From the NCBI GenBank assembly GCA_000002445.1, contig CP000071.1, positions 192,001-256,000 on the forward strand: 64,000 nucleotides of DNA, in the 5' to 3' direction. Position numbers and translations under genes: made by a program. Source of the stretch: Trypanosoma brucei. Its lineage: Eukaryota. The notes below the pieces were generated by a model. That model had not been told where the DNA came from. It searched no databases and worked only from the letters and a program-made list of their open reading frames with translations. Numbering within the stretch: position 1 is the stretch's first letter; each line of letters starts with the position of its first letter. Shown here in pieces: positions 4,484 to 37,637 of this stretch.

Positions 4484-7400
4484 TTAACGACCATCGTCCA
4501 TCAACACTTCACCGAAGGCATGACTACCCCAAATCATACTGTAATTGTTCGGTTCCTTTTCGCGAAGGGCGTTTGCGGGGGCCATGCTCTGCTGGGAAAC
4601 ATCTCCAAATACCGCGAACTCACGCACATCGGCCTCCCCTAATTTCCCACACATTTCCTTTACAAATGAATCGAACGAAGTCGTGTGTCTGCTTGCCTCA
4701 TGCGGCATTTCCCTTGACCCCTTTGCATACGTACGGTCTGCTGCCAACTTTACACCTCTGTCCATAATGTCTTCAATAAGCGAGTCATCATCCGAAGCAT
4801 CAGCGTCTTTCGTTTGTTCACCACATGTTCCCACCGGTGGTTGATGTCGCTGCACATCTGTCAAAGGTTTCGTCGTCACACGCATTCGCGCTGCAGGTGT
4901 TAAACCCATGTTGCAAGAGGAACCAAATGCTGAGAATGGGCTTGCATCAATTGCAGAGTCAATAGTTTTCTCCCCATGCTCTATTCCGAAGCGGCAGGGC
5001 TCAGTACACACCACACTTACAGGTGGGAACGAGTACGTCAAAACCGCGTCGAGCGACAACTGATCATGAATGGGGTTTCGGGCCGGGCTTGTGCGAACAT
5101 TCAACAAACTTTGGATGTCTTGCACGGTAAAGTAGCTAGCCTCCGGCATTCCCTTAGGTGTGTCCAGGAGAAAACTGAATGGTTTACTGGTGAAGGTGGC
5201 GTTGCGGAAGTACTCAACAATTGCCTTCGAGCTGCTCGGTTCCGCAAACTCCACGAAACTAAACCACAGCGTTGGGGCGGGGGCACCCAGTTCAGAGCCA
5301 TTCCTTCCCACTCCAGTAATATCCCCCTTTGGTGGAACTTGATTTTCATCACGGCACAATCGAACCTTATTAAGCTCACCAAAGTATGTAAGAAGTCGAC
5401 GAAATTGTGCTCGGCGAAGTGTCGAGGGAAGTTTCGTGATGTATACTGTTCGGTCCATCAATTCGGCCTGTGTGTAAACACTTGGGGCGTAGCCACCTCC
5501 TCGTGGACCTGAAAACGTTTTTGCGGAGTCCAGCCCCGTGGCTGCTTCAGAAAGTTGTGGCCTCACTTGTGACGCACGATGTTGCTGTTGCTGTTGTTGT
5601 TGCAAATGCTGTTGCTGCTGCTGCACCTGTTTTTGGATCAAACTCATTGCCGCGCTGCTTCCACAGTGGCGGAAGAACATTGACGGGGTCGATGCGTCAC
5701 CATGCGGTAACGAAACGGGCGTTGCTGAGTGGGGAGAGGCACATTCCACTGAGACATCGTGGGAGCTGCTGATGTCCATCGGTTCACCACGAGTGGTGAC
5801 TCGGTGAGAAGATGGCGATGTATATGTAAGACCCGGTGAACTATTACTTGTACCGTTAGCATTCACAGGTGTCACTTTCTCTATGACACGCCTTGGGGTT
5901 GGTCGAGCACTGGCACACAATGAAGAATTTCCTCCACCCTGTGCCGAGTCGAGTGGCAGCAGTCCCTCGAGACAATGGTCGTATTCCTTGCGGTACGGAT
6001 CTTTTTTGGCGCGCGACTTATTGTTCTTCCTCCACAAAGACGTGAATTCCTCTAGGCAAGCAAGCAGAATGAGGCACGGTTTGTGAACATCCTCTTCACC
6101 CTTCCCCGCTCCAAACAGGACGGCGGGTTTAGTTGATAGCGGTCGACTTCTTTCAAATTCCTTTGCACTCCTGAGCGCAACCTCGTGCTCCTTGATAATC
6201 TTGACTGCCAATTCATACGGACTTTTCTTCAAGTAACAATACTGGAAGAGATAGGCACTCAACACAGCTGCCACTTTTCGAGACTCATCTGGTTTGTCGT
6301 TGCTGATAAAGAGGTGCACGAGCGACCGTGCGATCTTCGAAATGAAAATTATGTTCCTGCCCATAATCAGGTCGGGGTCTTCACCATTTTCCACTCCCAC
6401 ATTATCCCTACCACCCCTGCGGGGGATCCGCATCTTTTCGTGGAGTGATAACAAGGCATTTACCAGTGGTGTTGAAAGTGCTTGTGCGTGGTGCCCAAAT
6501 GCAATGAGTGTGTCGGTTAACGCTGTGGCAAGTTGCTCCGCCGTCTTTTCTGTTGCCTCTGGGTTAGTAAGCAGCTGCTGCATCTTATCAGTTAACACAT
6601 TGACATCCACGACGTTGGCATGAAGCTCTTCAACCACCTCACGAAGTAGAGCATTATTCCCAACTCTAGCACATAGGTCATTCACGTCACTTGCAACATT
6701 CCTCCGAAATGGTTTTAACATCGTACCGGACTCCACTGCCGCTTCAGAGGCTGCCGTACCACTGACAGGATCTCGGCCGCTTGGTTTAGAAAGGTAGCGC
6801 GCAACCATGGGGAATAACTGCCCTTTAGCGTAGGAACCGTTCAATTTTTCAGCAGCGTCACGTGCAGTGCCCTCCTTATCGAAGAATATCAGCCCACTGC
6901 GCCTTGGGCCACCAGAAAGTTGGACAATATCTGGAAATATTTCTGCACTGAGAGCTCCATAGCGCGAAAAAAGCGCGAAAAGAGATTTTTTGTCCATCGT
7001 TGCTAACAGGTTGTGCACACCAACAAGAAACAGATCACGACCACTGTATGTCCTCTTGAAAAAGTCGTCTATCTCGTCCAACACAGCCATGTTAGATGTG
7101 TCATGCAACGCAGAGTAAGTAGCACTTGTATCATTCCCACCGGCTACGTCAGCAACTGACTGGTTACCAGCAAGCGCCACACCGCCGGGGTGAAAGTCAA
7201 ACAGTTTGTTGAGGTGAACAACATCAATTGGTTGCGCCTGTCCCTCGGGTGGTTTCAACTGAAATAACGACACTGCTTCCATCGCCGTCGCCTCTTCATT
7301 ATAGTATACCAGAGCGCTAACACTGCTGCAGGCCATAGGGGTTGTCGCGAAGCTGCATGATTTAGGGGGCCACATATCGAAGCACTCAGCACCCTTTTGA

Positions 7401-8617
7401 ATAAAGTTCTGACTTAAAACGGAATGAGCCACTTCTGGATCCAAACCGTGTATCGCGACGACGTGCTTCCCGGAGGCTCTATTCATGTGTGAATTGCTCT
7501 GAATAAAGCGGCACATTTCCATGTGTGTTTTGTAGAGTTCAGTACCTGGAGGTAACCGCCATGGCTTCGCTGAGGAGGAGAGACCCCATGTTGGCTGTTG
7601 CTGCGTACGTTGCGTTTGTTGCTGCTTTTGCTTGCCTGACATCGACGTTACACTGCGAGTTGCATCTGGAGACACTGGCAAACTTTGAGCAGGTGGCGCT
7701 TCCGGGTCACAATAGATTACTCGGAGTGGCTGGTGCTGTCCATTAGGCACAAAATCATTAAACTTCTCGACGGCCACAGCAGCAAACGCCTTAGAGGGAA
7801 AGAACACAGCACCTGCGCGTCGATTCGGACGCAGGGAGAAGTGTTGCGGCAAAATTTCTGCTTTCTTTGCATTCATGGGAAAGAATATGTTCAACAGCTC
7901 CTCCTTTGTTGTACGCGACTCGAGGTTGAAAACGGCGACAATATGGTAATTGCTGCACTCAGAAGCGAATGCCAGCATGATTTGGGAGGTGAGTGACTGT
8001 GGTGATTGTGACACAGAATTTTGGGTATTGGCGGCAGTGCTCCCGCTGTTACCACTGGAGCTGTCGTGTGAAGCCATTACGCGTACGCTGGGCGTACTCG
8101 CGGGCCATCGTGCCGCCACGTTCTTCTCTGGAGGTGCAATCATCCCATCATTTGCAATACCACCACGACTCGGAGGCCACGGCATTGCCATTGGCGTCAT
8201 TGGGGCAGGTTGACAATACAAGAGGGGGTTTTGAAGCATTGCGTGCAGATCCACTGGGTTGGGTACAGCAGGGACTGCGAAGCCAACAGCACCCATCGGC
8301 ACATGAAATTCTTTCGCCTCAGGGTTTAATGTCGACTTGGTGGATGCTGCAGCTCCGGCGCCGTCATTCACGAGGGGCCAACAGTGCGCTGCTGTAGTTT
8401 CACTTGATTGAGATGAGGTACCAGTGACCTTCTCCATCTGAATGTCATTTGCAGTGGTTAAAGAAGCGGCCTCCACCGTGAATCCTTTCTGCGTTGGTGG
8501 TTCACTGCTTGCAGGAGAAGTGAGCTGCACCGACGCTATGGATGAACCGGAGTCCCTCTTGGTTGGTTGGGGTTGAGAAACAGTGGAAGTAGTTCCTGCC
8601 GTTTCTGGAGTTATCAT
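4484..8617 (-). CDS. Large Gln/Ser-rich protein with at least three RRM-like modules and a polyQ tract (putative RNA-binding protein). The likely start is ATG 8615-8617; the track's upstream ATG at 8698 lies inside the poly-pyrimidine tract.
   Basis: 1404-aa minus-strand ORF. RRM-like segments are TVYITKLPSTLRRAQFRRLLTYFGELNKVRLCRDE..., HIVAVFNLESRTTKEELLNIFFPMNAKKAEILP...AGAVFFPSKAFAAVAVEKFN and LFLVGVHNLLATMDKKSLFALFSRYGALSAEIFPDIV...GLIFFDKEGTARDAAEKLNG. There is a polyQ run QKQVQQQQQHLQQQQQQQH. No plus-strand ORF of comparable length exists. The ATG at 8615-8617 directly follows a minus-strand pyrimidine tract (ttgttgcgtgtgcgtgtgtgtattttgttttacgttgggaaATG). Confidence 0.7.
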   Translation of the reverse strand: MITPETAGTTSTVSQPQPTKRDSGSSIASVQLTSPASSEPPTQKGFTVEAASLTTANDIQMEKVTGTSSQSSETTAAHCWPLVNDGAGAAASTKSTLNPEAKEFHVPMGAVGFAVPAVPNPVDLHAMLQNPLLYCQPAPMTPMAMPWPPSRGGIANDGMIAPPEKNVAARWPASTPSVRVMASHDSSSGNSGSTAANTQNSVSQSPQSLTSQIMLAFASECSNYHIVAVFNLESRTTKEELLNIFFPMNAKKAEILPQHFSLRPNRRAGAVFFPSKAFAAVAVEKFNDFVPNGQHQPLRVIYCDPEAPPAQSLPVSPDATRSVTSMSGKQKQQQTQRTQQQPTWGLSSSAKPWRLPPGTELYKTHMEMCRFIQSNSHMNRASGKHVVAIHGLDPEVAHSVLSQNFIQKGAECFDMWPPKSCSFATTPMACSSVSALVYYNEEATAMEAVSLFQLKPPEGQAQPIDVVHLNKLFDFHPGGVALAGNQSVADVAGGNDTSATYSALHDTSNMAVLDEIDDFFKRTYSGRDLFLVGVHNLLATMDKKSLFALFSRYGALSAEIFPDIVQLSGGPRRSGLIFFDKEGTARDAAEKLNGSYAKGQLFPMVARYLSKPSGRDPVSGTAASEAAVESGTMLKPFRRNVASDVNDLCARVGNNALLREVVEELHANVVDVNVLTDKMQQLLTNPEATEKTAEQLATALTDTLIAFGHHAQALSTPLVNALLSLHEKMRIPRRGGRDNVGVENGEDPDLIMGRNIIFISKIARSLVHLFISNDKPDESRKVAAVLSAYLFQYCYLKKSPYELAVKIIKEHEVALRSAKEFERSRPLSTKPAVLFGAGKGEEDVHKPCLILLACLEEFTSLWRKNNKSRAKKDPYRKEYDHCLEGLLPLDSAQGGGNSSLCASARPTPRRVIEKVTPVNANGTSNSSPGLTYTSPSSHRVTTRGEPMDISSSHDVSVECASPHSATPVSLPHGDASTPSMFFRHCGSSAAMSLIQKQVQQQQQHLQQQQQQQHRASQVRPQLSEAATGLDSAKTFSGPRGGGYAPSVYTQAELMDRTVYITKLPSTLRRAQFRRLLTYFGELNKVRLCRDENQVPPKGDITGVGRNGSELGAPAPTLWFSFVEFAEPSSSKAIVEYFRNATFTSKPFSFLLDTPKGMPEASYFTVQDIQSLLNVRTSPARNPIHDQLSLDAVLTYSFPPVSVVCTEPCRFGIEHGEKTIDSAIDASPFSAFGSSCNMGLTPAARMRVTTKPLTDVQRHQPPVGTCGEQTKDADASDDDSLIEDIMDRGVKLAADRTYAKGSREMPHEASRHTTSFDSFVKEMCGKLGEADVREFAVFGDVSQQSMAPANALREKEPNNYSMIWGSHAFGEVLMDDGR

Positions 8618-8700
8618 TTCCCAACGTAAAACAAAATACACACACGCACACGCAACAACAGAAAGAAGTTTTTTTAAAAAAAAAGCACAAACAAACAAAA
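8618..8700 (-). promoter_or_regulatory. Poly-pyrimidine tract and probable trans-splice acceptor region upstream of the 4484-8617 gene (minus-strand sense)
   Basis: The minus strand reads ...gtgctttttttttaaaaaaacttctttctgttgttgcgtgtgcgtgtgtgtattttgttttacg... immediately 5' of the ATG. This is inferred from kinetoplastid mRNA processing rules, not mapped. Confidence 0.35.
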
Positions 8701-12634: not shown

Positions 12635-13396
12635 TTAGAACCGCCCCCGCTTCCGATCGTTATTATTTCCGTTAAAGTTTGGTTTCGACTTGTTCCGCGG
12701 GGGTTCCTGGACGCCCCTCTGCTGCTGTTTGCTCTGCTGGGCCACATGCCCTTCGGATTTGCCCACCTTTTGTTTCTTAGCGGGGGGTTCCTCGTCCTCA
12801 TCCTCCTCCTTTTCTTGATCATCATCATCCTCATCTTCATCTTCATCATCTTCATCTTCATCATCTTCGTCATCTTCATCATCTTCCTCATCTTCGTCAT
12901 CGTCATCGTCACTGTCGTCTGTACGATCTACGACCTGTTGGCGCTTCGTTGCTGCGTTACCGTTCTTTTTCCCGTCTGTGAGTGGTACGCCTGCCATGTC
13001 ATCACCATCATCCAATCCCGTGTCTTCCCCTTCTTCTTCCTCCTCCTCCTCCTCAGCGTTGTCGTATTCCCCACTTCCACTCAAAGCAGCGGAAAGCATT
13101 CCTTCCGACTCCTGCTGATACCCACAACAATGAAGAACAGCATTTCCCTTCACACGGAAGACAACTTCTTGTTCATAACCAAAAACGATATCGACGGGAG
13201 TTTGCATCAGTTGCTGAGAAACGTCAAGAGTGAGAAGAGAAAACGATTCACCATCAACTGTCACATACAACGTGCTGCGGCCCTTCACACCGTGCTTTAC
13301 AGAAACAACAGAAAGGTGAAATGAGTGATGCTTTTCCAGCACCAACTTGTGTTCCTTGCCCGGAACGACCTCGAAACCATGAAACATGGGCGCCAT
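12635..13396 (-). CDS. Nucleoplasmin-like (HD2/FKBP-NPL type) acidic nuclear protein with a basic C-terminal tail ending RKRGRF
   Basis: The N-terminus MAPMFHGFEVVPGKEHKLVLEKHHSFHLSVVSVKHG...STLYVTVDGESFSLLTLDVSQQLMQTPVDIVFGYEQEVVFRVKGNAVLHCCGYQ matches the plant HD2 / insect FKBP39 NPL pattern (FWG.EV.PG ... L.H.SQA ... L.V.V.......LGTLS ... DLVF..E.E.......GSVY..GY). It is followed by poly-Glu/Asp tracts and a Lys/Arg-rich end. Confidence 0.75.
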   Translation of the reverse strand: MAPMFHGFEVVPGKEHKLVLEKHHSFHLSVVSVKHGVKGRSTLYVTVDGESFSLLTLDVSQQLMQTPVDIVFGYEQEVVFRVKGNAVLHCCGYQQESEGMLSAALSGSGEYDNAEEEEEEEEGEDTGLDDGDDMAGVPLTDGKKNGNAATKRQQVVDRTDDSDDDDDEDEEDDEDDEDDEDEDDEDEDEDDDDQEKEEDEDEEPPAKKQKVGKSEGHVAQQSKQQQRGVQEPPRNKSKPNFNGNNNDRKRGRF

Positions 13397-14139: not shown

Positions 14140-14199
14140 NNNNNNNNNNNNNNNNNNNNNNNNNNNNNNNNNNNNNNNNNNNNNNNNNNNNNNNNNNNN
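14140..14199. other. Assembly gap (60 N) inside a NOPP44/46 gene copy
   Basis: A literal run of n. The flanks do not join colinearly: the left flank is unique sequence and the right flank resumes inside the NOPP N-terminal domain. Confidence 0.99.
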
Positions 14200-14469
14200 A
14201 GTCAAATGCACTGAGCCAGAACCCGTGGCGGAAAGAGTGGTTCCCTGCTCTGCGGTTAACACGAGGTCGATGCCCATTTGAAATAGGCTCCGCTTGGGGT
14301 CAAGCGTGGCAATGGTAAATTCCTTCCCCTGAAAGGATATCACAAGAGTAATAGCACCACTTGCATTCGCAGGCACAGCAATTTGTGTGAGACGAAGTAC
14401 GTGGTCTTCGGGTATCTTCGGTTTGACCTTCTGCCCGGCACTCACTTCAACACCGTAGAAACCCTTCAC
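14200..14469 (-). CDS. NOPP44/46-type gene copy, N-terminal NPL-like domain only. It is truncated by the assembly gap, and its canonical start codon is replaced (ATG GAG GGT becomes GTG AAG GGT), so it is a possible pseudogene or has an alternative start.
   Basis: It encodes ...VKGFYGVEVSAGQKVKPKIPEDHVLRLTQIAVPANASGAITLVISFQGKEFTIATLDPKRSLFQMGIDLVLTAEQGTTLSATGSGSVHLT, identical to residues 2-90 of the 16921-17907 gene, and then runs into the Ns. The 5' flank (14470-14870) is unrelated to the 5' flanks of the other copies. Confidence 0.5.
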
Positions 14470-14870
14470 AAATGTTAAATGCAATACGCCTTTACTAATG
14501 GAAAATACAAAATGAATCGGAGACAACGGTGAAAGCATAGATAAGGGAAAGCGTAACACTGACGTACGCTACCAAACAATAGGCAAACACAGGGAAAAAA
14601 CACAGTCACATTCAATGTGTCGAAACCTCTGTGTTTTTCTGTTACCAAGCCACCTCCATGACAGGCAAATCATGTCACATCACGAACGCTTTCATTTTCG
14701 AACGCTTAATTACCATTATAGAAGCCCAAATAATCATTATTTCTACCCCACCCAATCCCATTTATGTCTCAGTTTCTTCTTCGCTCGTAAAATATCTCTG
14801 CATTTAGATGCGTTACCGATGTTTTCGTTGCTAAAACACATACTAACAAATAACAACAAATATTTACCAC

Positions 14871-15195
14871 AACTGAAGGTAGAGAAATGTGGTCGCTCAA
14901 GCGGTGCATGTCAGTACAAGCACAAACATTAATAACAATATCACAATTTCTCCATGCCTCCACGTGCAACACAACATCCGAACATGAGGGGATATATCGT
15001 CATCACACGTATCAATCATAGAACACGAGTGTAATAAGAGGTTAGCCTCGTAGTCAAATGCATAAACGGGAATAATAATGAGGCATATATCACGTATTCC
15101 ATAAGATTACTCTCTCAGTTACAACAATGCGGCACATCACATGGCACATATATCATTTTTAGTAACGACCCCTCCCAGAGTTCCCGCCGCGGAAT
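14871..15195. repeat. Copy 1 of a repeated 3'-flank/3'-end module of the NOPP array (about 325 bp shared by three gene copies)
   Basis: The string caactgaaggtagagaaatgtggtcgctcaagcggtgcatgtcagtacaagcacaaac...catttttagtaacgacccctcccagagttcccgcc recurs near-identically at 16633-16957 and 18296-18606. Confidence 0.9.
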
Positions 15196-16259
15196 CCACC
15201 TCTATTCCAGACCGCATTTGTTCCGCCTCTTCCGCTGTAAGGGGGCAGAGTGCGAGATGCATCGTTTAGGTGGTGATTTGGTGGGAAAGGATAGTTGTTT
15301 CGGCTGGAATAGGGATGAAAACCCCTATTTATTGCAGCAAACCCCCTTCCTAACAAATTGCTTGACATTCCTTGCCACTCACCCCCGCTATACAAGTACC
15401 TTTCTTCATTGGTATATCCCCTTCTCATTTCACCATTTGCTTGCCCTCTATACCCGCCACCCATGTAACCTCTTCCCCTACTTGAATACCCACCTCTCCC
15501 GTACCCTCTGTTCATTCCCAACTGATCCGCTTCATGGATTGGTTCATTATAAATGGCACCGAAACCACCTTGGGAAGAAGTGCTATTTATTCTCTGACGT
15601 CCACGTTGCCTGAAAAAACCCTGATGAACACCGCCGTACCCTCCTTCACCGTTGTAACGAAAGTAACCTCCCCGACGATATCTATGCTCATCCACGTGTT
15701 GTTCGTTGTGAAACTCGACTCCTCCCTCATGCCTAATTTTTGAAGGTCGCTCTTCGCCCTTATCGCCTCTCTTCCCAATTTTTTCCACACCATCATCAAC
15801 GCTCACAATACCTTCAACATCATAGTCACTTTCGCTGGTATTGTTTGAACTTTGCACTGATGTTTTACAAGCGGGCGCTACGCCACGAAAAGGCGGCGGC
15901 GCCATTTTCTCGAATGGGACACCACTGCAAATCTCACCACCGCAACTTGACTCACCATCCGTAACATTCTCAATAGGTTGTATATATCCAGTCACATGCA
16001 CTGAGCCGTTGCCAGTGGCGGAAAGAATAATATTCTGCTCTGCTTTAATCACAAGGTCAATCCCCATTTGCGATACATTCCTCACAGGATCAAGAGAAGC
16101 GATAGTAAATTCTTTACCCTGAAGGGAAACGACAAGAGAGACGGCATCACTTGTATTCGCAGGCACAGCAATTTGTGTGAGACGAAGTACGTTACCCTCC
16201 GGTATCTCTGGAATAACTTTCTCCCCGACGCTCACTTCAACACCGTAGAAACCCTCCAT
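15159..16259 (-). CDS. NOPP44/46-related paralog. It keeps the NPL-like N-terminal domain, has no acidic tract, and ends in a Tyr/Gly/Arg-rich low-complexity (RGG/YG, FUS-like) tail with RGGNSGRGRY.
   Basis: The N-terminus MEGFYGVEVSVGEKVIPEIPEGNVLRLTQIAVPANTSDAVSLVVSLQGKEFTIASLDPVRNVSQMGIDLVIKAEQNIILSATGNGSVHVTGYIQP is about 75% identical to the NOPP copy at 16921-17907. The tail is ...YRRGGYFRYNGEGGYGGVHQGFF...NRGYGRGGYSSRGRGYMGGGYRGQANGEMRRGY...NRGGFRGGNSGRGRY. The last ~12 codons and the 3' flank are identical to the NOPP copy. Confidence 0.8.
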   Translation of the reverse strand: MEGFYGVEVSVGEKVIPEIPEGNVLRLTQIAVPANTSDAVSLVVSLQGKEFTIASLDPVRNVSQMGIDLVIKAEQNIILSATGNGSVHVTGYIQPIENVTDGESSCGGEICSGVPFEKMAPPPFRGVAPACKTSVQSSNNTSESDYDVEGIVSVDDGVEKIGKRGDKGEERPSKIRHEGGVEFHNEQHVDEHRYRRGGYFRYNGEGGYGGVHQGFFRQRGRQRINSTSSQGGFGAIYNEPIHEADQLGMNRGYGRGGYSSRGRGYMGGGYRGQANGEMRRGYTNEERYLYSGGEWQGMSSNLLGRGFAAINRGFHPYSSRNNYPFPPNHHLNDASRTLPPYSGRGGTNAVWNRGGFRGGNSGRGRY

Positions 16260-16486
16260 TGCTGCCGATTGGAATGTAATTTATCTATCACCATTGCAAG
16301 TAAAAAATAATATAAACGAAAAAAGAAAACAAAACGGCACATGTTTCACGAAGCAGAAGGAGAATAGTCAAAAAAATTCAAAAAAAAAGATGTTAGGGCA
16401 ACGTAGCGCCATCTGGACAACCAGAAGCCGCAACTTCAGAAACTCCGAACGATCATTCTTACGATAGTAACGCTAGGAAGAATTCA

Positions 16487-16957
16487 CTCTCATCATTATC
16501 CTTTGTTATCATTATTATTCTTATTCACGCTGATTCATCGTTTATATTTTCTCTCCTTATATTACTCAACCATTTCTTTAGTGTCCTCTAACGCTGTCCA
16601 TAATTTCAAGCGCAAGAAAAACGTTGCACTACAACTGAAGGTAGAGAAATGTGGTCGCTCAAGCGGTGCATGTCAGTACAAGCACAAACATTAATAACAA
16701 TATCACAATTTCTCCATGCCTCCACGTGCAACACAACATCCGAACATGAGGGGATATATCGTCATCACACGTATCAATCATAGAACACGAGTGTAATAAG
16801 AGGTTAGCCTCGTAGTCAAATGCATAAACGGGAATAATAATGAGGCATATATCACGTATTCCATAAGATTACCCTCTCAGTTACAACAATGCGGCACATC
16901 ACATGGCACATATATCATTTTTAGTAACGACCCCTCCCAGAGTTCCCGCCACGGAAG
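16487..16957. repeat. Copy 2 of the array intergenic/3'-end repeat (about 470 bp shared with 18149-18606; the 3' 325 bp is also shared with 14871-15195)
   Basis: Direct comparison of the three regions. It starts at ctctcatcattatcctttgttatcattattattcttattcacgctg... Confidence 0.9.
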
Positions 16958-17907
16958 TTGCCGCGATTCCCGCCACGGAAGTTACCACGGTTTCCTCCAC
17001 GATCCCCGCCACGGAAGTTGCCACGGTTTCCTCCACGATCTCCGCCACGGAAGTTTCCACGGTTTCCTCCGTTACCACTTCGGTCTCCGCCGCGGAAGTT
17101 TCCACGGTTTCCTCCACGGTCTCCGCCACGGAACCCTCCGCGATTACCACCGTTACCGTTTCGGTCCCCACCACGGAACCCCCCGCGATTACCACCACGG
17201 AACCCTTGTTGCTCAGTGCGTTGCACTTTACTGGCTGGCTCATCATCATCATCGTCATCATCATCATCATCATCATCATCGTCATCGTCATCGTCATTAT
17301 CATTATCATTATCATCTTCTTCATCATCGTCATCGTCATCGTCATCGTCACTGTCGTCTTCATCGTAGGCTTCATCATCATCATCATTGTCGTCTTCGTC
17401 ACCCGCGTCAATTCCTTCATTGTCCTTTTCAATACCTTCCTCGTCATCGGATTCGTCGTCTCCATCGACGCCGTCACCATTTGCTTCATCGGAATTCTCT
17501 TCGCTTACAGGAAACTTGGCAGATTTCCCTCCTCTTTTCGGGGGAACTCCGTAGGATTCCATATCTTCAGCATCCACCTCATCGAGATCATCTTCCTCAT
17601 CAAAATCACTTCCATCATCAACAGGTTGAACGTATCCAGTCAAATGCACTGAGCCAGAACCCGTGGCGGAAAGAGTGGTTCCCTGCTCTGCGGTTAACAC
17701 GAGGTCGATGCCCATTTGAAATAGGCTCCGCTTGGGGTCAAGCGTGGCAATGGTAAATTCCTTCCCCTGAAAGGATATCACAAGAGTAATAGCACCACTT
17801 GCATTCGCAGGCACAGCAATTTGTGTGAGACGAAGTACGTGGTCTTCGGGTATCTTCGGTTTGACCTTCTGCCCGGCACTCACTTCAACACCGTAGAAAC
17901 CCTCCAT
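16921..17907 (-). CDS. NOPP44/46: Nucleolar phosphoprotein NOPP44/46-type: NPL-like N-terminal domain, long Asp/Glu tract and C-terminal RGG/RGN repeats
   Basis: MEGFYGVEVSAGQKVKPKIPEDHVLRLTQIAV...GSVHLTGYVQP, then an acidic region (over 40 consecutive Asp residues encoded by GAT/GAC repeats), then roughly 11 RGGF/RGGN/RGNF repeat units, ending GGNSGRGRY. This domain order matches the described T. brucei NOPP44/46. Confidence 0.85.
   Translation of the reverse strand: MEGFYGVEVSAGQKVKPKIPEDHVLRLTQIAVPANASGAITLVISFQGKEFTIATLDPKRSLFQMGIDLVLTAEQGTTLSATGSGSVHLTGYVQPVDDGSDFDEEDDLDEVDAEDMESYGVPPKRGGKSAKFPVSEENSDEANGDGVDGDDESDDEEGIEKDNEGIDAGDEDDNDDDDEAYDEDDSDDDDDDDDDEEDDNDNDNDDDDDDDDDDDDDDDDDDEPASKVQRTEQQGFRGGNRGGFRGGDRNGNGGNRGGFRGGDRGGNRGNFRGGDRSGNGGNRGNFRGGDRGGNRGNFRGGDRGGNRGNFRGGNRGNFRGGNSGRGRY
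16945..17215. repeat. Coding minisatellite: periodic repeats of about 30-36 nt encoding the (GGDRGGNRGNFR)n RGG box
   Basis: Recurring ccgccacggaagttgccacggtttcctccacgatc units on the plus strand. Confidence 0.85.
17241..17365. repeat. Coding trinucleotide repeat (ATC/GTC on plus, equal to GAT/GAC, encoding poly-Asp)
   Basis: catcatcatcatcgtcatcatcatcatcatcatcatcgtcatcgtcatcgtcattatcattatcatt... read directly. Confidence 0.9.
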
Positions 17908-18148
17908 TGCTGCCGATTGGAATGTAATTTATCTACCACCATTGCAAGACAAAGTCAGGTATTGCGAGGAAAGAGAGAAAAGGTTACAAACTCCAAGGGG
18001 CAAAGAGTAAAAAATACAAAAAAAAACACCGCCATCGGACAAAACACACAAAATGAAAGTGTTATTACCCAAAAGTAAGTACCAGGAAACAGATTCCATT
18101 ATATGCAAAGCGACCTATCACCTTCTTCCACATCCTCTGTCCCTCCCA

Positions 18149-18606: not shown

Positions 18607-18666
18607 NNNNNNNNNNNNNNNNNNNNNNNNNNNNNNNNNNNNNNNNNNNNNNNNNNNNNNNNNNNN
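18607..18666. other. Assembly gap (60 N) at the upstream edge of the NOPP array
   Basis: Literal n run. The sequence after the gap is unique, not NOPP-like. Confidence 0.99.
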
Positions 18667-31043: not shown

Positions 31044-34000
31044 CTAGACAAGGTACTTTGGCATCTTCATGAGGGGCATAATCAATTCAATCTCCTTTGG
31101 TGTAAAGGATTCACGGTGGTACAACTCCCATCCATTAGCATGAGCCTTCCACCACTGCTCAAATGCTACTTTCACCTCCCGCTGCACCTCAGCCATGGCG
31201 TCGTGCTCTAAAGGAGCTAACTTGCGCATGAGAAACTTTACATGTGGTGTAATGGGGCCAACATCTGAAGAAAGGAATGCACACAGACAGCGTACAAGCG
31301 CTGCACGGCGTCGCTTCCGATTATTTTCCCTTTCTATTACAGCTGGGAGTGGTTCTTCTGCGACACCACCGGTGTCTCGATCTGAAGAAATCGAATATTC
31401 CTGCAATTCTTTGGCACACTGCTGTACGAGCGAATTAATTTGCTCTATAGATGCCACCCTGGAAAGAACTGCCAAAAGAGAACGGGTGTTGGCACGAAGA
31501 TCCCCATCACCGTGTGACATGCACCCCACGCAGGCACTGAACACACTACGCATGGTCTCATACTTTCCAATTCGATGAAGGTTCATAAGCAACATCTGAT
31601 AAAATGCGCGAGTAAGAACAACCTTCGCTCTCCGCGTCTTCCCAAAAGGGTAATTTCCCTCCAGGACATCGCATAAAAACTTGACTACTGACTGGATCAC
31701 ATCCTTCCGCTGCCGTGACAAAGCGAAAGAACTTAGAGTTGACAGTGCTACTGTTTCAAAATCGTCATTATCGAGTGAAGCGCCGTCCAGAGCTGTAGTT
31801 GCAGTTGTTATTGCCTCCATCCACATCACACTAAATAACTCAGGCGGTGGACTGTGCCACATGGAGGTTAATGTCTTTAACCCAGCCTGTTCAGCGGTTG
31901 TTGAAACATCACTGGTGTTGCCGTGGTTTTTGTTGTCAGATGCCACTGGGTGCTTGTTTACCACCAACATATCTTCATTCGCATTGACAGCGGTAATACA
32001 TGTTGTTGCCACCTGAAAAGGGAAACCAGAGTTTAATACCGTCGGGGGGTAGCATACCTGCAACCTGACGATACAATTGAGCTGACGAAGAAAGTCCAAA
32101 ACAACACTCTGCGCCGAATTGTTAGAAGGAATGTATTTACTTTGATACAGAGAGAGACGCAAAAGATACCTTAGTGAAGTCGCAGCGTAGTGACGAATCT
32201 CGTTTGAATCACTAAACAGAAATATTTTTTTCCGGTCCAAAATGCACCGACACAACTTAGGCAGCAGCACGATGTTAACATCAGCGGCAAACACGTCCAG
32301 CAGCTTCGTGATGACGTGAAGCGCCCGTAATATGCCTCTTTTCACGCCAGTAAATGCCACTTTGATGTTTGCCTCTACGCTATCTGAATCACGTACCCCC
32401 GAGGTCACATTCACGGGGGAGCCGGAACCATCATCCAGTGGTGTCAGCATGTCAAAGAAGGGTTCGTACATTGACCAAACATCATGGGTTTTCACCTTAC
32501 CGTACAGTGCACCAAGACCTGAAATGAAACTCATGAGCACCGTATGTGACAAGAGGATGTTACTGCATGCTTGTAGCAGCATACTGACATAGCAATCGAG
32601 CGCCTCCCGACGAAGTTTAGGGTTTCTTTTGGAGAGACAAATTGCAGCAACGATTACGTCAACAAGGCACGGAAGCTCCTGAGGGTATTCTTTGCTTCTG
32701 TTACTCTCGCTTTGCACAAGCTTCATGTAGTCACTAAACCAAAGGTACGCAACCTGTATGTACCTTTTCACAGTCTCTTCAACTCCTGCGGCTTCACCTA
32801 AAGACCTCCACATAGACGCCAGTCCCACTGAAAACGAGGTTTGATCACGATTTGCTAGCAGCACGTTCCACACCCAAGTCCCTCGGATTCTCTTCTCGAT
32901 GGCAGCCTCGTTGACTAAGACTTTTCCCACCGAATCGTCGGTGTCTGATGCCTGTTCCTGAGCACCTTTCGACGTGTTTTCGTTATCGTCCAAAATTCCC
33001 GCCAACTTAGAAATCAAATTTTTCAGCCCCTGCCGCACCATCCTTCTCTCCGCCAAATCCTTCTCTTCATGACAGGTGGTAAAAGATTGCATGCGCAACC
33101 TTAACCCAGGCACCTCATTGTCAGGTACAGTAAATACTTCGCCATCGCCAGATATATCTGGGGGAGCGCACGTCCTGTCCACCCGAATGGACTTAGGGGG
33201 GAATACCAACCCCATTTTTCCATGGAGGCTAAAGGAAGTGTGGTTTTCCTGTAAAAATCTGTACCTGTTGCTAAAAAAAGAGGTGGTATCTTCACCTTCC
33301 ATGCTTCCCTTCCGCATCAAAATGTTCACTTTGGGTGTCTTCTCTTTTAACGAATATAGCACCACCCGCAGTACAGAGAACGCCGAGCGACGCGTCTCGG
33401 CACAGATGTCCACTGTAAGTTTGAACAGCGCTGCAATGGAAGCTGGTGAAAGAAGCTCGTAATGTAGTTGGATGTGGTTACAAGAGAGGGTACGCAGCAT
33501 CTGAACAGCAAACGTCGGTGCCGTATGTGAGCACTTCATTGCAAGCGGCAACAGCTCATCTGTAAGACACGCTATCGCCATGGGTTCAATAAGGAATGGA
33601 GTGCACACCTCCGCAGCACGGTCCCCATATAAGGAGCATGCGCTGCCTGTTCGGCGAAGCTGGTCTGGTATTTTTAATCCCACTTCAAACATACGCCGAA
33701 TAAAAGATGCGTCACGCTGATATACGTCCAAGGAAAAACCTATTACTGTTTGCATAATTGCACCACTCAGCGCCTTTCGCAACTGCACAAGAGAACCTTT
33801 CTCGCCTACACCGCTCGTTGCGATATCGTCAGATGCGTTGGCAAGCGCGGAGCCTTTACCGTGGTCATCACTCTTACTCTGACTTGTTTCGGCACCAGTA
33901 CACCCCTCAACAAAAAAAACGTCACATATTTTTGCTGCATCACTGCCACGGTCACCCTCCACGCAGGAATCATTGCCCTCACTGCTACAATTCTCAATTT

Positions 34001-37000
34001 GTAAAATTTCCTCCCCTGGTCCAGTGTGTCCTTCCTTATCACATATGCTGTTCTTCTCTCCACTACAAACATCGCCTTCCTGTCTGACGAAATCGATTAT
34101 ACCCTCCAAAACATCGAAATGGCGCAGGAGAAACTGGCGACAACCATCGAAACCGAGGTATGGCAGATATGTTCTTAGAATGCAAGAGCAATGTTTTCGG
34201 ACATCTGGGTACGGTGAAAACAGCAATGAGTACGCGATAGAGAGGGTGTCACCAAGGTACTGAGGATAAACAACCATTGGATTCTGTTGGCGGCGGCAGT
34301 GGAGGAGATATTCTGATCGCAGTCGCCAGAAAAGGGCTGGAAAATAGAAGCGGTGCCTCTCCGACTCCACTATAATTGCGGAGAAGTGCTTGAATTCCAC
34401 GTCAAAAGGGATGGTGTAATCATTGGGAATGTTTGTTCGGGTGTCTAATCCCATTTCCCGAAAAAAGAGTGTAAGAACGTAGCAAAGCGTATCGACGTCA
34501 ACCCCTTTTGTGTGGGCAACATCCAGCGGCAATTTACCACGTACCAACAAACTTTGATCGCGTCGCAACACGGTAGCAATAACAGCTTCATCAGCCACGC
34601 CACCTGTCACACGTCTCAACACATAATCCAAAAGTAGACTGTGAATGCTCTCCGTTAACCTTGTAGACTTCTCTAGAAGCGATGGGGAAACCTCGTGTAG
34701 GGGCCATGGAGTTTTAGGGTCCTTATAGTGCCATGGCGTCATGTTGGTCTCACCGTCCGTGGCACACTGAACTCGCAGCTCACAGTTAACGGCCCAAACG
34801 GTATCCAACCAGCACACTGCACCGCAAAGCACGTTATGAGGCGTGACGACGTCGTGGCTGCCCTCAGCGTCAGGAGCCGACGGTGCCTGATGTGATACCA
34901 ACTGACGCACTGAATCGTCTACACACCCACCATTTTCCCTCAGACCTTCGTTCACACTATCGTGATGTGAACTAGGGGACAAATGAGGCGGAAGGAATGC
35001 ACGCAGGCCCCGTGCAGCCTCCTTACGACTGGGGACCCTAATGTGCTCGATATTTTGAATAATGTCTGTGAGATCCGTCAGAAACAACTGATAAACCTCA
35101 TGGAGGAACGAAACATGTTCCTCCGATGGTTCCTGCCACACAGGTTCCACATCAAAGTAACGATACAGTCCCATGCTAGATTTATCTTGTTTCTGTTCCG
35201 AGTCGCCCTCAGCGGCACATGACTCTTCCTCCATCATGTGATCGCCCCGTACCAGTGACGAATCCACAGCTCGGACACCGACACACCTGGTTTCAGAAAA
35301 GGCGAAGAAAACAGCCGTGTAAAGTAGGGCAGCGCAGCAGCGCCGCTTTCGATTAGTTATCGAGAAAAGTTGCGCTTGAATGCAGTCCAGCAACTCGTAA
35401 CGATAAGGAAAGCAGGCTAATCCAGCACCGCAAACGCAGCTGGACAATAAAGACGAACACCACAATACCTCCTCGTCGTTGCACGTATTCACATCACTGC
35501 GCAGCGGCGGCAACAACCGTGCAATCGCCCACTTCATCACGCGTTCAGGAGAACGCCGAGCAAGGGGTTCCAGCAGGCAACCTACAGAGGGTACCTGCGA
35601 GTTTTTCACCTGCGTTTCCGCCTCTTTAAGAGCCTTCTTCAAGCAATCACTGTAAGCTTCGTCACTGACATTGTGCGAAAGAGAATCTATAATACTCGCC
35701 AGAACATCCGCGTCACTGTCTTCAGTATCTCCCCGCTTAGCACTATGAAACAGTTGTTCCACAACGCTGACAGCAAACTCACACTCAGCAACTTCACTGC
35801 CCAATAATTCGTCTAGATTTAAAACAGTAAAGACGGCAAACAAGAACTCTCGCACACTATTAGAAAGTTGAATACTACTGCAATTTATCCACTGCGGTAC
35901 TAGTGGAAGTATCTCACTGAGGAACGTCCGACAACTCTCCCGGGTCTCACTGCATTCACTAAATGGCAAAAGGGTCTTCGTAAATAACTTGAGGGCCACA
36001 GAGCACTGTAGGGGTGACTCCAAGCATCCACGAATTCCAGCTTCAACGTACTTGAAGGCAGGTGGTTGCATAATTTTGGGTGAAAGAAGCGTAAGTAACC
36101 CCACTGCATTTATAATAGAGTGGTGGCCGTGGTATAACGCGGGGATAATCGCGGGGGCCACAATCTCGACAAGGGAATCGACGGTCTCCCGCTTCCAACG
36201 ATATCCATTAATGACAAAACCATTTCCTGGATCTTTCTCACCCGTTAGCAACCAACTGTGCTTGTGCTTCACCCGCAAGTAAGCGGTTTCCAGGAAGGTG
36301 TTGTAAAACGACAACAAGTGCCCCAGTGCTCTACTATCAACGGCACAAGGTGTAAGAAAAACACTGGTTGAAGACACAAACCGACGCAGCTGATTCCATA
36401 GTGGTGAGGTGGTACAGCAAGGTAGTGCCTCACTAATGCGCCCGACAATCTTCATAAACCGACCTTGACTAACTTCCAGCACTTTGCGGCCGCCAAAAGA
36501 CCATGCAGATGAAACGAGGCGCTCCGGCTTATCATTGCTACTAATGGGCGGTCTCATTACGCTCAATATCATACTGAACAATGTTTCCGCGTATTCATCA
36601 AGGTCCATGATTCCAGCACGCTCTCGACAGATCTTAAACACAATGTCCAGCGAAACCATGAGCCAACTCCCTGACCTCTGCTGCCAATAACGTGCATCCA
36701 CAAGCAAGAAACGCACAATACGCTCCGTCATAGGCAGCGCTCTTCCCGTTACACGATCATAAGTAGCATGAATTGGTAGAAGAATATATAAAAACCACAG
36801 CGCCTGCACCGCCTGCTCACTGTCTTGGGAGAAATAAGGCGCACAAATCTCCCACAACCCATTTAGGGATTCGCCATCAAAGTGCAATGAGGCACACCAG
36901 CACAAATTTGCTAGTATTTCAGCAACTTCTGCTTTTACATGGGTGTAGAACCGAATACGAGACAACCGTGATGATTCGAAAACAAGTGAGTGAACGATAT

Positions 37001-37637
37001 CCACGAGCGGTTTCCACGGAAGGGAAAACCCGGGGTGCTTCAATGCATATTTGCGTCGCCCACGAACAACTGAGCAAAAGCAACTCACAACAGAACTCCA
37101 CGCGCTCACGTTACGAATCATGAAGTCCCAGTTCACAATCCACGTATAGAGAAAGATTACGACGTTGCGTTGCACGTCGCGAGGGAGGTTGTACGAGAAA
37201 TTTTTATTTGTAAATGTCCTCCTAAAGTATGTGCAACGACACACTAATTCGTCTTCGGCATCGGACCAGTCACTGTACTCGTTCCGTGGGGAGCTGCATA
37301 TAGGCACGAGTGGAACAGGAGTTCCCGTGCCATCAGCGACGCCAAAGCGTGAGCAGGATGATCCCTTCTCTCCGTGTTCACCCCGCTGCTCGTCCACGTT
37401 GTTAGAATTAATTCTACCCGCAACCTCCTCTGGAGTTCCGAATGCCAGCAGTAATAGCATGCCCTTTTCTATAGCCATGCGGTCCTCACGCTCAATCGCC
37501 TCTCGTAGGCGGGGATGCGTGCAACGGTCTAAATACGGCAACAGCCACTGCTCTTGTAGGTTTCTCTTCTTTGAAACATCTGTCGCGTCACCCACGGCCA
37601 ATGAAACCTCCGCGGAGGATCTCTCATCGCTTTGCAT
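31044..37637 (-). CDS. Very large (about 2197 aa) hypothetical protein, probably an alpha-helical HEAT/ARM-like repeat scaffold. The track ORF extends to 37826, but the first ATG after the minus-strand pyrimidine tract / AG is at 37635-37637 (MQSDERSS...).
   Basis: 6.6-kb uninterrupted minus ORF. The sequence is leucine-rich and helical in character throughout (…LLLAFGTPEEVAG…, …ALYHGHHSIINAVGLLTLLSPKIMQ…, …LRYLLRLSLYQSKYIP…) with no catalytic motif visible. The C-terminus ends …IELIMPLMKMPKYLV. Confidence 0.7.
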   Translation of the reverse strand: MQSDERSSAEVSLAVGDATDVSKKRNLQEQWLLPYLDRCTHPRLREAIEREDRMAIEKGMLLLLAFGTPEEVAGRINSNNVDEQRGEHGEKGSSCSRFGVADGTGTPVPLVPICSSPRNEYSDWSDAEDELVCRCTYFRRTFTNKNFSYNLPRDVQRNVVIFLYTWIVNWDFMIRNVSAWSSVVSCFCSVVRGRRKYALKHPGFSLPWKPLVDIVHSLVFESSRLSRIRFYTHVKAEVAEILANLCWCASLHFDGESLNGLWEICAPYFSQDSEQAVQALWFLYILLPIHATYDRVTGRALPMTERIVRFLLVDARYWQQRSGSWLMVSLDIVFKICRERAGIMDLDEYAETLFSMILSVMRPPISSNDKPERLVSSAWSFGGRKVLEVSQGRFMKIVGRISEALPCCTTSPLWNQLRRFVSSTSVFLTPCAVDSRALGHLLSFYNTFLETAYLRVKHKHSWLLTGEKDPGNGFVINGYRWKRETVDSLVEIVAPAIIPALYHGHHSIINAVGLLTLLSPKIMQPPAFKYVEAGIRGCLESPLQCSVALKLFTKTLLPFSECSETRESCRTFLSEILPLVPQWINCSSIQLSNSVREFLFAVFTVLNLDELLGSEVAECEFAVSVVEQLFHSAKRGDTEDSDADVLASIIDSLSHNVSDEAYSDCLKKALKEAETQVKNSQVPSVGCLLEPLARRSPERVMKWAIARLLPPLRSDVNTCNDEEVLWCSSLLSSCVCGAGLACFPYRYELLDCIQAQLFSITNRKRRCCAALLYTAVFFAFSETRCVGVRAVDSSLVRGDHMMEEESCAAEGDSEQKQDKSSMGLYRYFDVEPVWQEPSEEHVSFLHEVYQLFLTDLTDIIQNIEHIRVPSRKEAARGLRAFLPPHLSPSSHHDSVNEGLRENGGCVDDSVRQLVSHQAPSAPDAEGSHDVVTPHNVLCGAVCWLDTVWAVNCELRVQCATDGETNMTPWHYKDPKTPWPLHEVSPSLLEKSTRLTESIHSLLLDYVLRRVTGGVADEAVIATVLRRDQSLLVRGKLPLDVAHTKGVDVDTLCYVLTLFFREMGLDTRTNIPNDYTIPFDVEFKHFSAIIVESERHRFYFPALFWRLRSEYLLHCRRQQNPMVVYPQYLGDTLSIAYSLLFSPYPDVRKHCSCILRTYLPYLGFDGCRQFLLRHFDVLEGIIDFVRQEGDVCSGEKNSICDKEGHTGPGEEILQIENCSSEGNDSCVEGDRGSDAAKICDVFFVEGCTGAETSQSKSDDHGKGSALANASDDIATSGVGEKGSLVQLRKALSGAIMQTVIGFSLDVYQRDASFIRRMFEVGLKIPDQLRRTGSACSLYGDRAAEVCTPFLIEPMAIACLTDELLPLAMKCSHTAPTFAVQMLRTLSCNHIQLHYELLSPASIAALFKLTVDICAETRRSAFSVLRVVLYSLKEKTPKVNILMRKGSMEGEDTTSFFSNRYRFLQENHTSFSLHGKMGLVFPPKSIRVDRTCAPPDISGDGEVFTVPDNEVPGLRLRMQSFTTCHEEKDLAERRMVRQGLKNLISKLAGILDDNENTSKGAQEQASDTDDSVGKVLVNEAAIEKRIRGTWVWNVLLANRDQTSFSVGLASMWRSLGEAAGVEETVKRYIQVAYLWFSDYMKLVQSESNRSKEYPQELPCLVDVIVAAICLSKRNPKLRREALDCYVSMLLQACSNILLSHTVLMSFISGLGALYGKVKTHDVWSMYEPFFDMLTPLDDGSGSPVNVTSGVRDSDSVEANIKVAFTGVKRGILRALHVITKLLDVFAADVNIVLLPKLCRCILDRKKIFLFSDSNEIRHYAATSLRYLLRLSLYQSKYIPSNNSAQSVVLDFLRQLNCIVRLQVCYPPTVLNSGFPFQVATTCITAVNANEDMLVVNKHPVASDNKNHGNTSDVSTTAEQAGLKTLTSMWHSPPPELFSVMWMEAITTATTALDGASLDNDDFETVALSTLSSFALSRQRKDVIQSVVKFLCDVLEGNYPFGKTRRAKVVLTRAFYQMLLMNLHRIGKYETMRSVFSACVGCMSHGDGDLRANTRSLLAVLSRVASIEQINSLVQQCAKELQEYSISSDRDTGGVAEEPLPAVIERENNRKRRRAALVRCLCAFLSSDVGPITPHVKFLMRKLAPLEHDAMAEVQREVKVAFEQWWKAHANGWELYHRESFTPKEIELIMPLMKMPKYLV

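Follow-up and report, generated by a model that had tools for sequence, protein, structure and literature searches.

Tb927.8.750 (NOPP44/46-2), a diverged member of the Trypanosoma brucei NOPP44/46 array with an aromatic RG/RGG-rich tail

NOPP44/46-1, a trypanosome-specific nucleolar RNA-binding phosphoprotein, is essential for ribosome biogenesis, where the 60S subunit depends on it, and the life-cycle phosphatase TbPTP1 acts on it as a substrate. In the window analysed here, a stretch of 64,000 nt of T. brucei chromosome 8 (CP000071.1, 192,001 to 256,000), the gene beside it encodes a protein that shares its N-terminal domain and its last codons, and a first interpretation made from the letters alone (the sequence-only reading) took this protein for a NOPP44/46 paralog carrying a FUS-like tail. 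What is this gene, how does its interior differ from that of its neighbour, and what might its product do?

A named gene in a tandem array with shared ends

The complete coding sequence of NOPP44/46-2, 366 codons plus stop, lies on the minus strand at 15159..16259 (Tb927.8.750, UniProt Q57YF6), and its product is an exact sequence match to AAZ12846.1, CBH13083.1, SCU66017.1 and Q57YF6. A published study ties Tb927.8.750 to Q57YF6 under the name NOPP44/46-2 (PMC9585242). The sequence-only reading had asked whether this member is annotated separately from NOPP44/46, and it is; with an annotation, a name and several detections of its product to its credit, it is a known gene and not a discovery. 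Text matches to Tb927.8.750, Tb927.8.740 and Tb927.8.730 were partly irrelevant, these identifiers being prefixes of Tb927.8.7500, Tb927.8.7400 and Tb927.8.7300.

The comparison partner is the canonical NOPP44/46-1-type neighbour (16921..17907, 328 amino acids, Tb927.8.760 by position). Both frames are present as first described, without a strand, and both are on the minus strand. The neighbour's product consists of a nucleoplasmin-like (NPL) domain, a 42-residue Asp-rich tract and FRGG/RGNF repeats, in this order, and its Tyr181 agrees with the published pY181 site. Described at first as poly-Asp of more than 40 residues, the tract does have that length, but it is a mixture of D, E, N and S with 34 Asp, in which the longest pure Asp run is 18. 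A second NOPP44/46-1-type copy (14200..14559, minus strand) is truncated by an assembly gap at 14140-14199; it is 99.6% identical to the 16921..17907 gene over 269 nt, and its counterpart in T. b. gambiense is annotated as 'truncated' (P0006). A third, distant NPL paralog of 253 amino acids (12635..13396, minus strand, Tb927.8.730 by position, AAZ12844.1) carries an acidic tract, and its C-terminus is basic, with RKRGRF as its last residues. The array is flanked by two 60-N gaps, the one mentioned and another at 18607-18666, and its gene order is the same in T. b. gambiense.

The paralogs are most alike at the ends of their genes. The last 36 nt of the coding sequence (15159..15194, minus strand, encoding ...FRGGNSGRGRY plus stop) are 99% common to NOPP44/46-1, the last 10 codons and the stop being identical, and the proximal 3' flank, a 293-nt 3'UTR segment (14866..15158, minus strand), is 99% identical to the 3' flanks of the NOPP44/46-1 copies by blastn and MAFFT, much as the sequence-only reading had it. 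An RGR[YF] ending also occurs in the 253-residue paralog and in the Leishmania homolog. On the other side of the gene, the last ~45 nt before the ATG (16260..16304, minus strand), which include the 5'UTR and the splice-acceptor region, together with the first ~30 nt of the coding sequence, are ~97-98% identical to NOPP44/46-1 (MAFFT, identity in 30-nt windows), and the spacers of the repeat units are 99-100% identical. This pattern suggests that gene conversion homogenises the gene ends while selection holds the interiors apart, in which case the paralogs would share mRNA-processing and 3'UTR regulatory signals. The locus may thus offer a compact model of a disordered tail that is remodelled while gene conversion maintains identical gene ends.

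A nucleoplasmin-like core followed by an aromatic tail

The N-terminal domain of NOPP44/46-2 (residues 1-93; 15981..16259, minus strand) is nucleoplasmin-like by Pfam, AlphaFold2 (AF2) and Foldseek, as had been proposed. Residues 4-93 match PF17800 (NPL) with E = 8.4e-17, and AF2 predicts seven beta strands for the N-terminus at a pLDDT of 89-94 (~90 over residues 1-97). Foldseek matched the cores of HDT1/2, FKBP43 NPL, PfNPM and NPM1, with TM scores of 0.83-0.87 to the pentameric plant HDT and FKBP43 NPL cores; for nucleoplasmin, NPM1 and HDT cores the range was E = 1e-8 to 1e-5 and TM 0.72-0.87 on the target. The PDB profile matches for the domain were likewise pentameric entries, with at least 5 chains. 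Amino acid identity to the NOPP44/46-1 domain is 73-74% over 92-93 residues (80% at the nucleotide level), close to the ~75% given at first, and the beta-sandwich is retained under purifying selection (dN/dS 0.22 between the two paralogs, with an interior dS of ~0.74). With this identity, the PF17800 match, the position in the array and the shared flanks, the claim of paralogy stands, and NOPP44/46-2 belongs, as a diverged member, to the NOPP44/46 genes arrayed in tandem on chromosome 8.

Beyond the core, pLDDT is below 50 across nearly all of residues 100-366. The linker (residues 94-190; 15690..15980, minus strand) is of mixed composition, predicted to be disordered (pLDDT 41-59) and mildly acidic, with a net charge of -9. 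Its residues 116-170 align colinearly with residues 116-171 of NOPP44/46-1 (z = 3.0; 5 of 500 shuffles reached this score), and so the two middles, which had been called completely different, appear to retain a weak similarity at the start of the NOPP44/46-1 acidic region. The acidic tract itself is missing, as first noted, the longest acidic run of NOPP44/46-2 being 'DD', and so are the regular RGG repeats.

The part that is rich in Y, G, R and N was put at about 230 residues; it comprises 176, residues 191-366 (15162..15689, minus strand), with 23% G, 14% R, 9% Y and 9% N. This tail holds 16 RG motifs, 5 of them RGG, and 26 aromatic residues (16 Tyr, 8 Phe and 2 Trp) at a mean spacing of 6.9, and its 25 Arg contribute to a net charge of +15. 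AF2 predicts it to be disordered and without secondary structure (pLDDT 36-48). No tandem repeats were found in the DNA of 15159-16259, and alignment of the tail to the NOPP44/46-1 RGG array scored on par with composition-matched shuffles (z = 0.95).

How should such a tail be named? Prion-like domains, the FUS low-complexity domain among them, contain almost no charged residues. With FUS-type domains the tail has in common its predicted disorder and its spaced aromatics, but every 60-residue window in it is at least 18% charged; even the most polar one (residues 225-284) combines 58% N/Q/S/Y/G with 18% D/E/K/R, and a prion-like stretch, with few charged residues over at least 60 residues, was not found. 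Its clustered RG and RGG motifs in a Gly-rich stretch of predicted disorder are those of RGG/RG-motif proteins. Of the original 'prion-like, FUS-like' label, the disorder and the Arg/Gly/Tyr richness were borne out, whereas the charge and the 14% Arg speak against the rest; the tail comes closer to the aromatic RG/RGG regions of hnRNP-A or FUS-RGG type, and 'FUS-like' fits only loosely.

Searched at full length with phmmer against 1.84 billion representatives, NOPP44/46-2 gave matches to its NPL domain and no true match to the tail, the single exception, a repetitive 909-residue protein, being spurious. A word-indexed search gave only 3 matches to the full protein and, for the tail alone at E <= 1, only NOPP44/46-2 itself; this search is incomplete for the family, having missed NOPP44/46-1-type proteins, and its absences are weaker evidence than those of phmmer. 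Overall, no tail homolog was detected in 5.8 billion proteins, and none outside Trypanozoon. The clusters of NPL matches were from Phytomonas and Angomonas, contaminant-derived or from metagenomes, with no T. congolense or T. vivax ortholog among them, a gap that could reflect collapsed tandem arrays in those species and not true absence. An NPL-only search returned the truncated T. b. gambiense copy and a partial T. theileri sequence, both uninformative on the tail. Judging by these searches, the NOPP44/46-2 tail appears restricted to the T. brucei group.

What the protein may do

Published proteomics bears directly on the protein. NOPP44/46-2 was found in the mRNA-bound proteome obtained with oligo(dT), and upon PRMT1 knockout its mRNA association fell to 0.6x while its total protein rose to 1.9x (PMC6299225). 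In that study the two paralogs were quantified separately, PRMT1 loss shifting NOPP44/46-2 to 1.90x and NOPP44/46-1 to 1.12x. NOPP44/46-2 also co-precipitates with both eIF4G3 and eIF4G4 (PMC9585242), was recovered in the TbCul-D immunoprecipitate with NOPP44/46-1, NOP60 and importin-alpha (PMC12816148), and was detected by proteomics in whole cells. The detections are thus mostly in mRNA-bound and eIF4G-associated fractions, plus one nuclear cullin-D pull-down, and pull-downs and oligo(dT) capture may contain abundant, sticky RG-rich proteins as background. Because its mRNA association depends on PRMT1, NOPP44/46-2 is likely a PRMT1 substrate. In the literature searched, we found no experiment on where this protein itself localises, in which oligomeric state it occurs, or whether it binds RNA or phase-separates, and no data of its own on tyrosine phosphorylation or a part in 60S biogenesis; the gene is not listed in the supplement of the nucleolar-targeting paper, and its tail appears not to have been studied on its own.

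The explanation that we favour, and consider rather probable as a whole, is that the known gene Tb927.8.750 has kept the NPL core between near-identical gene ends, has lost the Asp-rich tract, carries an RG/aromatic tail where NOPP44/46-1 has its regular FRGG repeats, and encodes what would be a multivalent RNA binder. Going by the homologous structures, its NPL domain would multimerise, pentamers being probable and a mixture with NOPP44/46-1 possible, and a pentamer would display about five RG/aromatic tails, which together could act as a multivalent, arginine-methylation-sensitive RNA binder. The Asp-rich tract of NOPP44/46-1 is absent from NOPP44/46-2, as is the region of the Tyr181 phosphosite, and with no polyanionic tract the NOPP44/46-2 tails would be free of the auto-inhibition or charge balancing that would act on those of NOPP44/46-1. 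The near-neutral protein that results would favour RNA binding, as well as aromatic and arginine contacts that could promote condensation.

How FUS-family proteins phase-separate depends on their content of Tyr and Arg, and in the nucleolus the granular component has pentamers of NPM1 as its scaffold. By analogy, NOPP44/46-2 could plausibly act as a condensate scaffold. The specific form of this idea, in which an NPL pentamer would use its Tyr/Arg-rich tails to bring about or adjust liquid-liquid phase separation in the nucleolus as nucleophosmin does, but through FUS-type Tyr-Arg contacts, seems to us rather unlikely. It draws on the fold in common with NPM1, on a predicted-disordered tail whose aromatics lie ~7 residues apart among 25 Arg, and on the nucleolar annotation of NOPP44/46-2 and its co-purification with nucleolar NOPP44/46-1 and NOP60. 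It has to contend, however, with two of the three published detections coming from poly(A) mRNA and from eIF4G complexes, both of them fractions of a cytoplasmic type, with a charged tail that is not prion-like, and with the lack of acidic tracts, by which NPM1 binds its Arg-rich clients; furthermore, a protein that is apparently confined to the T. brucei group cannot be a general trypanosomatid nucleolar scaffold.

A more far-reaching idea, which we regard as speculative and improbable, is that the NPL pentamer has moved from ribosome biogenesis to mRNP or translation control as a T. brucei-group innovation. A newly evolved Tyr/Arg-rich tail would enable NOPP44/46-2 to enter mixed pentamers with the acidic NOPP44/46-1, and the ratio of the two, arginine methylation and phosphorylation of the 19 Tyr of NOPP44/46-2 would adjust, in life-cycle transitions, how charged nucleolar or mRNP assemblies are and how far they condense.

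NOPP44/46-2 could also be a decaying duplicate, a redundant copy whose middle drifted and whose tail has no function of its own. Its place beside several NOPP44/46-1 copies, a tail devoid of homologs and repeats, and the weak similarity to the acidic region, which suggests divergence in place, would all suit such a history, but it is largely refuted and we hold it to be very improbable. The 366-codon frame is intact, and the tail is not a chance open frame, since stops arose in every one of 20000 nucleotide shuffles, and 8 and 27 stops interrupt the other two frames. The NPL domain is constrained, as described above, and the response to PRMT1 loss differs from that of NOPP44/46-1. The coding sequence is, moreover, identical at 1101 of 1101 nt in T. 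b. gambiense and T. equiperdum contigs, compared to 16 mismatches in 1675 nt of the adjacent gene plus spacer; this lack of variation among the three assemblies makes the dN/dS of the tail unmeasurable.

Finally, an assembly chimera or frameshift in a collapsed repeat array, named by the sequence-only reading as what would refute it, is scarcely credible. Gaps on both sides of the array and near-identical spacers do invite mis-joins, but the annotations of TREU927, T. b. gambiense DAL972 and T. equiperdum OVI all include this 366-residue protein, mass spectrometry has picked it up, and the coding sequence is identical in both further assemblies. On one T. equiperdum contig of 3.2 kb, a NOPP44/46-1 gene, the spacer and the whole NOPP44/46-2 gene lie together at 99.2% identity. 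In none of its forward frames does NOPP44/46-1 encode a product rich in Y, G and R, and in none of those of 15159-16259 are there acidic or RGG repeats.

To summarize, with a common oligomerisation core and a Tyr-rich tail of opposite charge, NOPP44/46-2 could modulate the NOPP44/46-1 system; alternatively, it could be a separate mRNA-binding factor.

Comparison with known systems

NOPP44/46-2 is closest to NOPP44/46-1, the adjacent gene of the same tandem array, with which it shares the NPL domain, the end of the 5'UTR, the last 12 codons and the 3'UTR segment, all of the gene ends being near-identical. Both proteins have RG motifs towards the C-terminus and GRGRY as their last residues, and both were recovered with mRNA and with cullin-D. 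They part in between: NOPP44/46-2 is devoid of the 42-residue Asp-rich tract and of the region around the Tyr181 site, its pI is 7.8 compared to 4.05 and its net charge +1 compared to -56, and it has 19 Tyr compared to 5. Its tail is non-repetitive, with an entropy of 3.67 bits compared to 2.27, and cannot be aligned to that of NOPP44/46-1 beyond composition.

The arrangement of a nucleoplasmin-like (eight-stranded) core followed by a long disordered tail is also that of NPM1, the plant HDT histone deacetylases and FKBP39/43/53, to whose type of core that of NOPP44/46-2 is only 12-30% identical in sequence. These proteins have acidic tracts, and many of them a terminal folded domain or zinc finger, whereas NOPP44/46-2 has neither.

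As for the tail, hnRNP A1/A2, the FUS RGG regions and the GAR domains of fibrillarin and GAR1 are Gly-rich disordered regions with Tyr or Phe and RG/RGG motifs. The NOPP44/46-2 tail can be likened to them in being Gly-rich with Tyr/Phe and RG/RGG motifs, with no sequence homology to any of them, and it differs from the FUS N-terminal SYGQ domain in being rich in charged residues. NOPP44/46-2 also differs in lacking folded RNA-binding domains such as an RRM or a zinc finger, and has instead an NPL domain that would oligomerise.

Identity of the gene and its tandem array

A reading made from the sequence alone had placed the ORF correctly at 15159-16259, leaving its minus strand unstated, and had asked whether the gene is annotated separately from NOPP44/46. 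It is, and was thus already known: the gene is annotated, numbered and named. Its 366-aa product exactly matched AAZ12846.1 (UniProt Q57YF6, T. b. brucei TREU927), CBH13083.1/XP_011775360.1 (T. b. gambiense DAL972) and SCU66017.1 (T. equiperdum), all labelled 'nucleolar RNA-binding protein, putative'. Q57YF6 is Tb927.8.750, published as NOPP44/46-2 (PMC9585242), and the same name is used alongside NOPP44/46-1 for Tb927.8.760 (PMC6299225).

Every gene in the array part of the window lies on the minus strand. First in transcription order is the NOPP44/46-1-type gene at 16921-17907 (328 aa; Tb927.8.760 by position), whose Tyr181 agrees with the published NOPP44/46 pY181, a TbPTP1 substrate site. 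An exact look-up of its 328-aa sequence in the protein collection gave no match, and the T. b. gambiense copy (locus L001, 4367-5338) encodes 323 aa with a shorter poly-Asp run, so the length of this tract varies between strains or copies. NOPP44/46-2 comes second, followed by the N-terminus of another NOPP44/46-1-type copy (14200-14559), 99.6% identical to the first and broken after ~120 codons by a 60-N assembly gap (14140-14199). Fourth is a distant 253-aa paralog (12635-13396; AAZ12844.1, Tb927.8.730 by position; 251 aa in T. b. gambiense), whose nucleoplasmin-like (NPL) domain is only 26% identical and which combines a Glu/Asp-rich tract with a basic, Lys-rich tail and lacks RGG repeats. 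A second 60-N gap (18607-18666) lies upstream of the array, just upstream of a spacer 100% identical to that between the genes at 16921-17907 and 15159-16259; the gaps and the repeated spacer indicate that array copy number is collapsed in the present assembly. Overlapping long ORFs that run antisense to the poly-Asp and RGG regions or read them in another frame (16903-17652, plus; 16899-17489, minus; 12746-13324, plus) were rejected as genes, their poly-Ile, poly-Met or poly-Ser products being by-products of repetitive codons.

Beyond the array, the RRM protein at 4484-8698 (minus) agrees by position with DRBD17 (Tb927.8.710), a neighbour that one published table gives together with Tb927.8.750 and Tb927.8.760 (PMC6299225). 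Further large ORFs lie at 31044-37826, 41701-43362, 45154-49803 and 50762-54022; every large ORF of the window reads from the minus strand, in keeping with a single polycistronic unit. Across the window's large ORFs, Pfam detected an RRM, a PSME4/Blm10-like proteasome activator, VID27, an Iml1 N-terminal domain and a WD40 protein.

A genuine gene with shared ends and a diverged interior

The observation of two paralogs sharing their ends is real and largely accurate, its core being correct since the N-terminal, 5' and 3' identities were all confirmed. The N-terminal domains, estimated from sequence as about 75% identical, share 73-74% of amino acids over 92-93 residues (80% in nucleotides). 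Identity reaches 99% over the final 36 nt of the CDS (...FRGGNSGRGRY and stop, differing at one synonymous site) and the 293 nt that follow, as the claim of common last codons and 3' flanks implied. At the 5' end it is 97-98% over ~45 nt ahead of the ATG and the initial 30 nt of the CDS. These near-identical blocks span 14866-15194 versus 16628-16956 and 16230-16304 versus 17878-17952. The locus is thus a mosaic, with concerted evolution at the gene ends (97-99% identity) and divergence inside, and the common 3'UTR segment and 5' end imply shared mRNA-processing and regulatory signals.

The interiors, described as completely different, are not wholly unrelated, since the linker (residues 94-190) still resembles, weakly and in colinear order, the beginning of the neighbour's acidic region (z = 3.0; score reached in 5 of 500 shuffles). 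The tail (residues 191-366) aligned with the neighbour's RGG array no better than composition-matched shuffles (z = 0.95), and its amino-acid entropy is 3.67 bits versus 2.27. The neighbour's tract is indeed longer than 40 residues (42), but it is a D/E/N/S mixture with 34 Asp and a longest pure run of 18. Overall, NOPP44/46-2 has a pI of 7.8 and a net charge of +1, against 4.05 and -56 for NOPP44/46-1.

Two other origins were ruled out. A pseudogene does not fit the open tail frame (none of 20000 shuffles was stop-free, and the other two frames hold 8 and 27 stops), the dN/dS of 0.22 (dS 0.74) between the two NPL domains, or the quantification of NOPP44/46-2 apart from NOPP44/46-1 by mass spectrometry (PMC6299225). 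An assembly chimera is excluded by the T. b. gambiense and T. equiperdum assemblies, in which the CDS is identical at 1101 of 1101 nt: along T. b. gambiense chromosome 8 the genes follow one another in the same way, encoding 323, 366, 119 (truncated) and 251 aa, and a 3.2-kb T. equiperdum contig (99.2% identity) spans a NOPP44/46-1 gene, the spacer and all of NOPP44/46-2, with 16 mismatches in 1675 nt over the adjacent gene and spacer. No frameshift relation links the two genes.

The ending RGR[Y/F]-COOH (15159-15170, 16921-16932 and 12635-12646) is common to NOPP44/46-1, NOPP44/46-2, the 253-aa paralog (RKRGRF) and the L. donovani homolog P0004 (KRGRY). Being shared by paralogs and a Leishmania homolog, it suggests a conserved motif, which may serve for example in import or nucleolar targeting, beyond gene conversion alone.

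Anatomy and origin of the tail

Residues 1-93 form the NPL domain (Pfam PF17800, E = 8.4e-17), predicted by AF2 with seven strands at pLDDT 89-94. Foldseek matched it to the Arabidopsis HDT1/2 and FKBP43 NPL cores (TM on target 0.83-0.87) and to the Plasmodium nucleoplasmin, Drosophila NLP/FKBP39 and human/Xenopus NPM1 cores (0.72-0.85), and a profile search matched the same pentameric PDB entries. Nearly everything beyond residue 100 has pLDDT <50 without secondary structure. The linker is mixed in composition and mildly acidic (net charge -9). The Gly/Arg-rich aromatic tail, put at ~230 aa in the sequence-only reading, spans 176 aa (G 23%, R 14%, Y 9%, N 9%; net charge +15) with 16 RG motifs, 5 of them RGG, and 16 Tyr, 8 Phe and 2 Trp at a mean spacing of 6.9 residues; no tandem DNA repeats were found in it. 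Prion-like domains are charge-poor; the label 'prion-like' or 'FUS-like' is unsuitable here because every 60-aa window of the tail is at least 18% charged.

A full phmmer scan of the whole protein against 1.84 billion representative proteins gave 53 matches, all to the NPL domain save one spurious repetitive protein. Word-indexed searches of 5.8 billion proteins took either the whole protein or just its tail as query, and the tail query (E <= 1) returned only NOPP44/46-2 itself. The homologs of T. cruzi (NPL, acidic and RGG) and L. donovani (NPL and RGG repeats) have the canonical architecture. The tail appears to have replaced the acidic and RGG modules of the family in one lineage, its restriction to the T. 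brucei group being apparent, as other trypanosome tandem arrays are often collapsed in assemblies. On the most economical reading, NOPP44/46-2 would have arisen by an old tandem duplication (dS 0.74), its linker and RGG region changing where they stood and losing the Asp tract, while gene conversion would hold its ends identical to neighbouring units. A 114-aa NOPP44/46-like NPL fragment (P0007) that UniRef assigns to the insect Lygus hesperus probably reflects contamination of that transcriptome by a trypanosomatid.

Published detections and a model

In the open-access literature searched, NOPP44/46-2 appears in only three papers, each time as a table or figure entry. In bloodstream forms it belongs to the mRNA-bound proteome captured with oligo(dT) (Lueong FDR 0.033), and PRMT1 knockout lowered its mRNA association to 0.6x but raised its total level 1.9x, compared with changes of 0.4x and 1.12x for NOPP44/46-1 (PMC6299225). 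It co-precipitated with eIF4G4 (ratio 5.25) and was reported with both eIF4Gs (PMC9585242). Significant interactors of the nuclear, CUL4-like TbCul-D include both NOPP44/46 proteins, NOP60 and importin-alpha (PMC12816148), a co-purification that does not prove direct contact. This literature yielded no study devoted to where NOPP44/46-2 localises, how it oligomerises, which RNAs it targets or how it behaves in phase separation; the classical NOPP44/46 papers, which lie outside it, may discuss the variant gene.

The best-supported model, in which we place moderate confidence, is that NOPP44/46-2 is an oligomeric RG/RGG-type RNA-binding protein. Its NPL core, pentameric in solved relatives, would multimerise and bring together several RG tails, each disordered, aromatic and positively charged, and these would associate with RNA in a way that depends on PRMT1 methylating their arginines. 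The core, 73% identical in the two proteins, could also allow co-assembly with NOPP44/46-1, whose polyanionic tract NOPP44/46-2 lacks, so that it is not internally charge-neutralised. A putative role as a condensate scaffold, proposed from the sequence, is compatible with the Tyr and Arg content of the tail, but its recovery with mRNA and eIF4G suggests, at least in part, a function that is not confined to the nucleolus.

The protein itself is essentially uncharacterised, and the interest that remains lies in its lineage-restricted tail and the mosaic evolution of the locus. The nearest functional analogy is with hnRNP A-type proteins, through their aromatic RGG low-complexity regions, or with the RGG domains of FUS, although those proteins carry RRMs, whereas NOPP44/46-2 has its RGG-type tail fused to a nucleoplasmin core.
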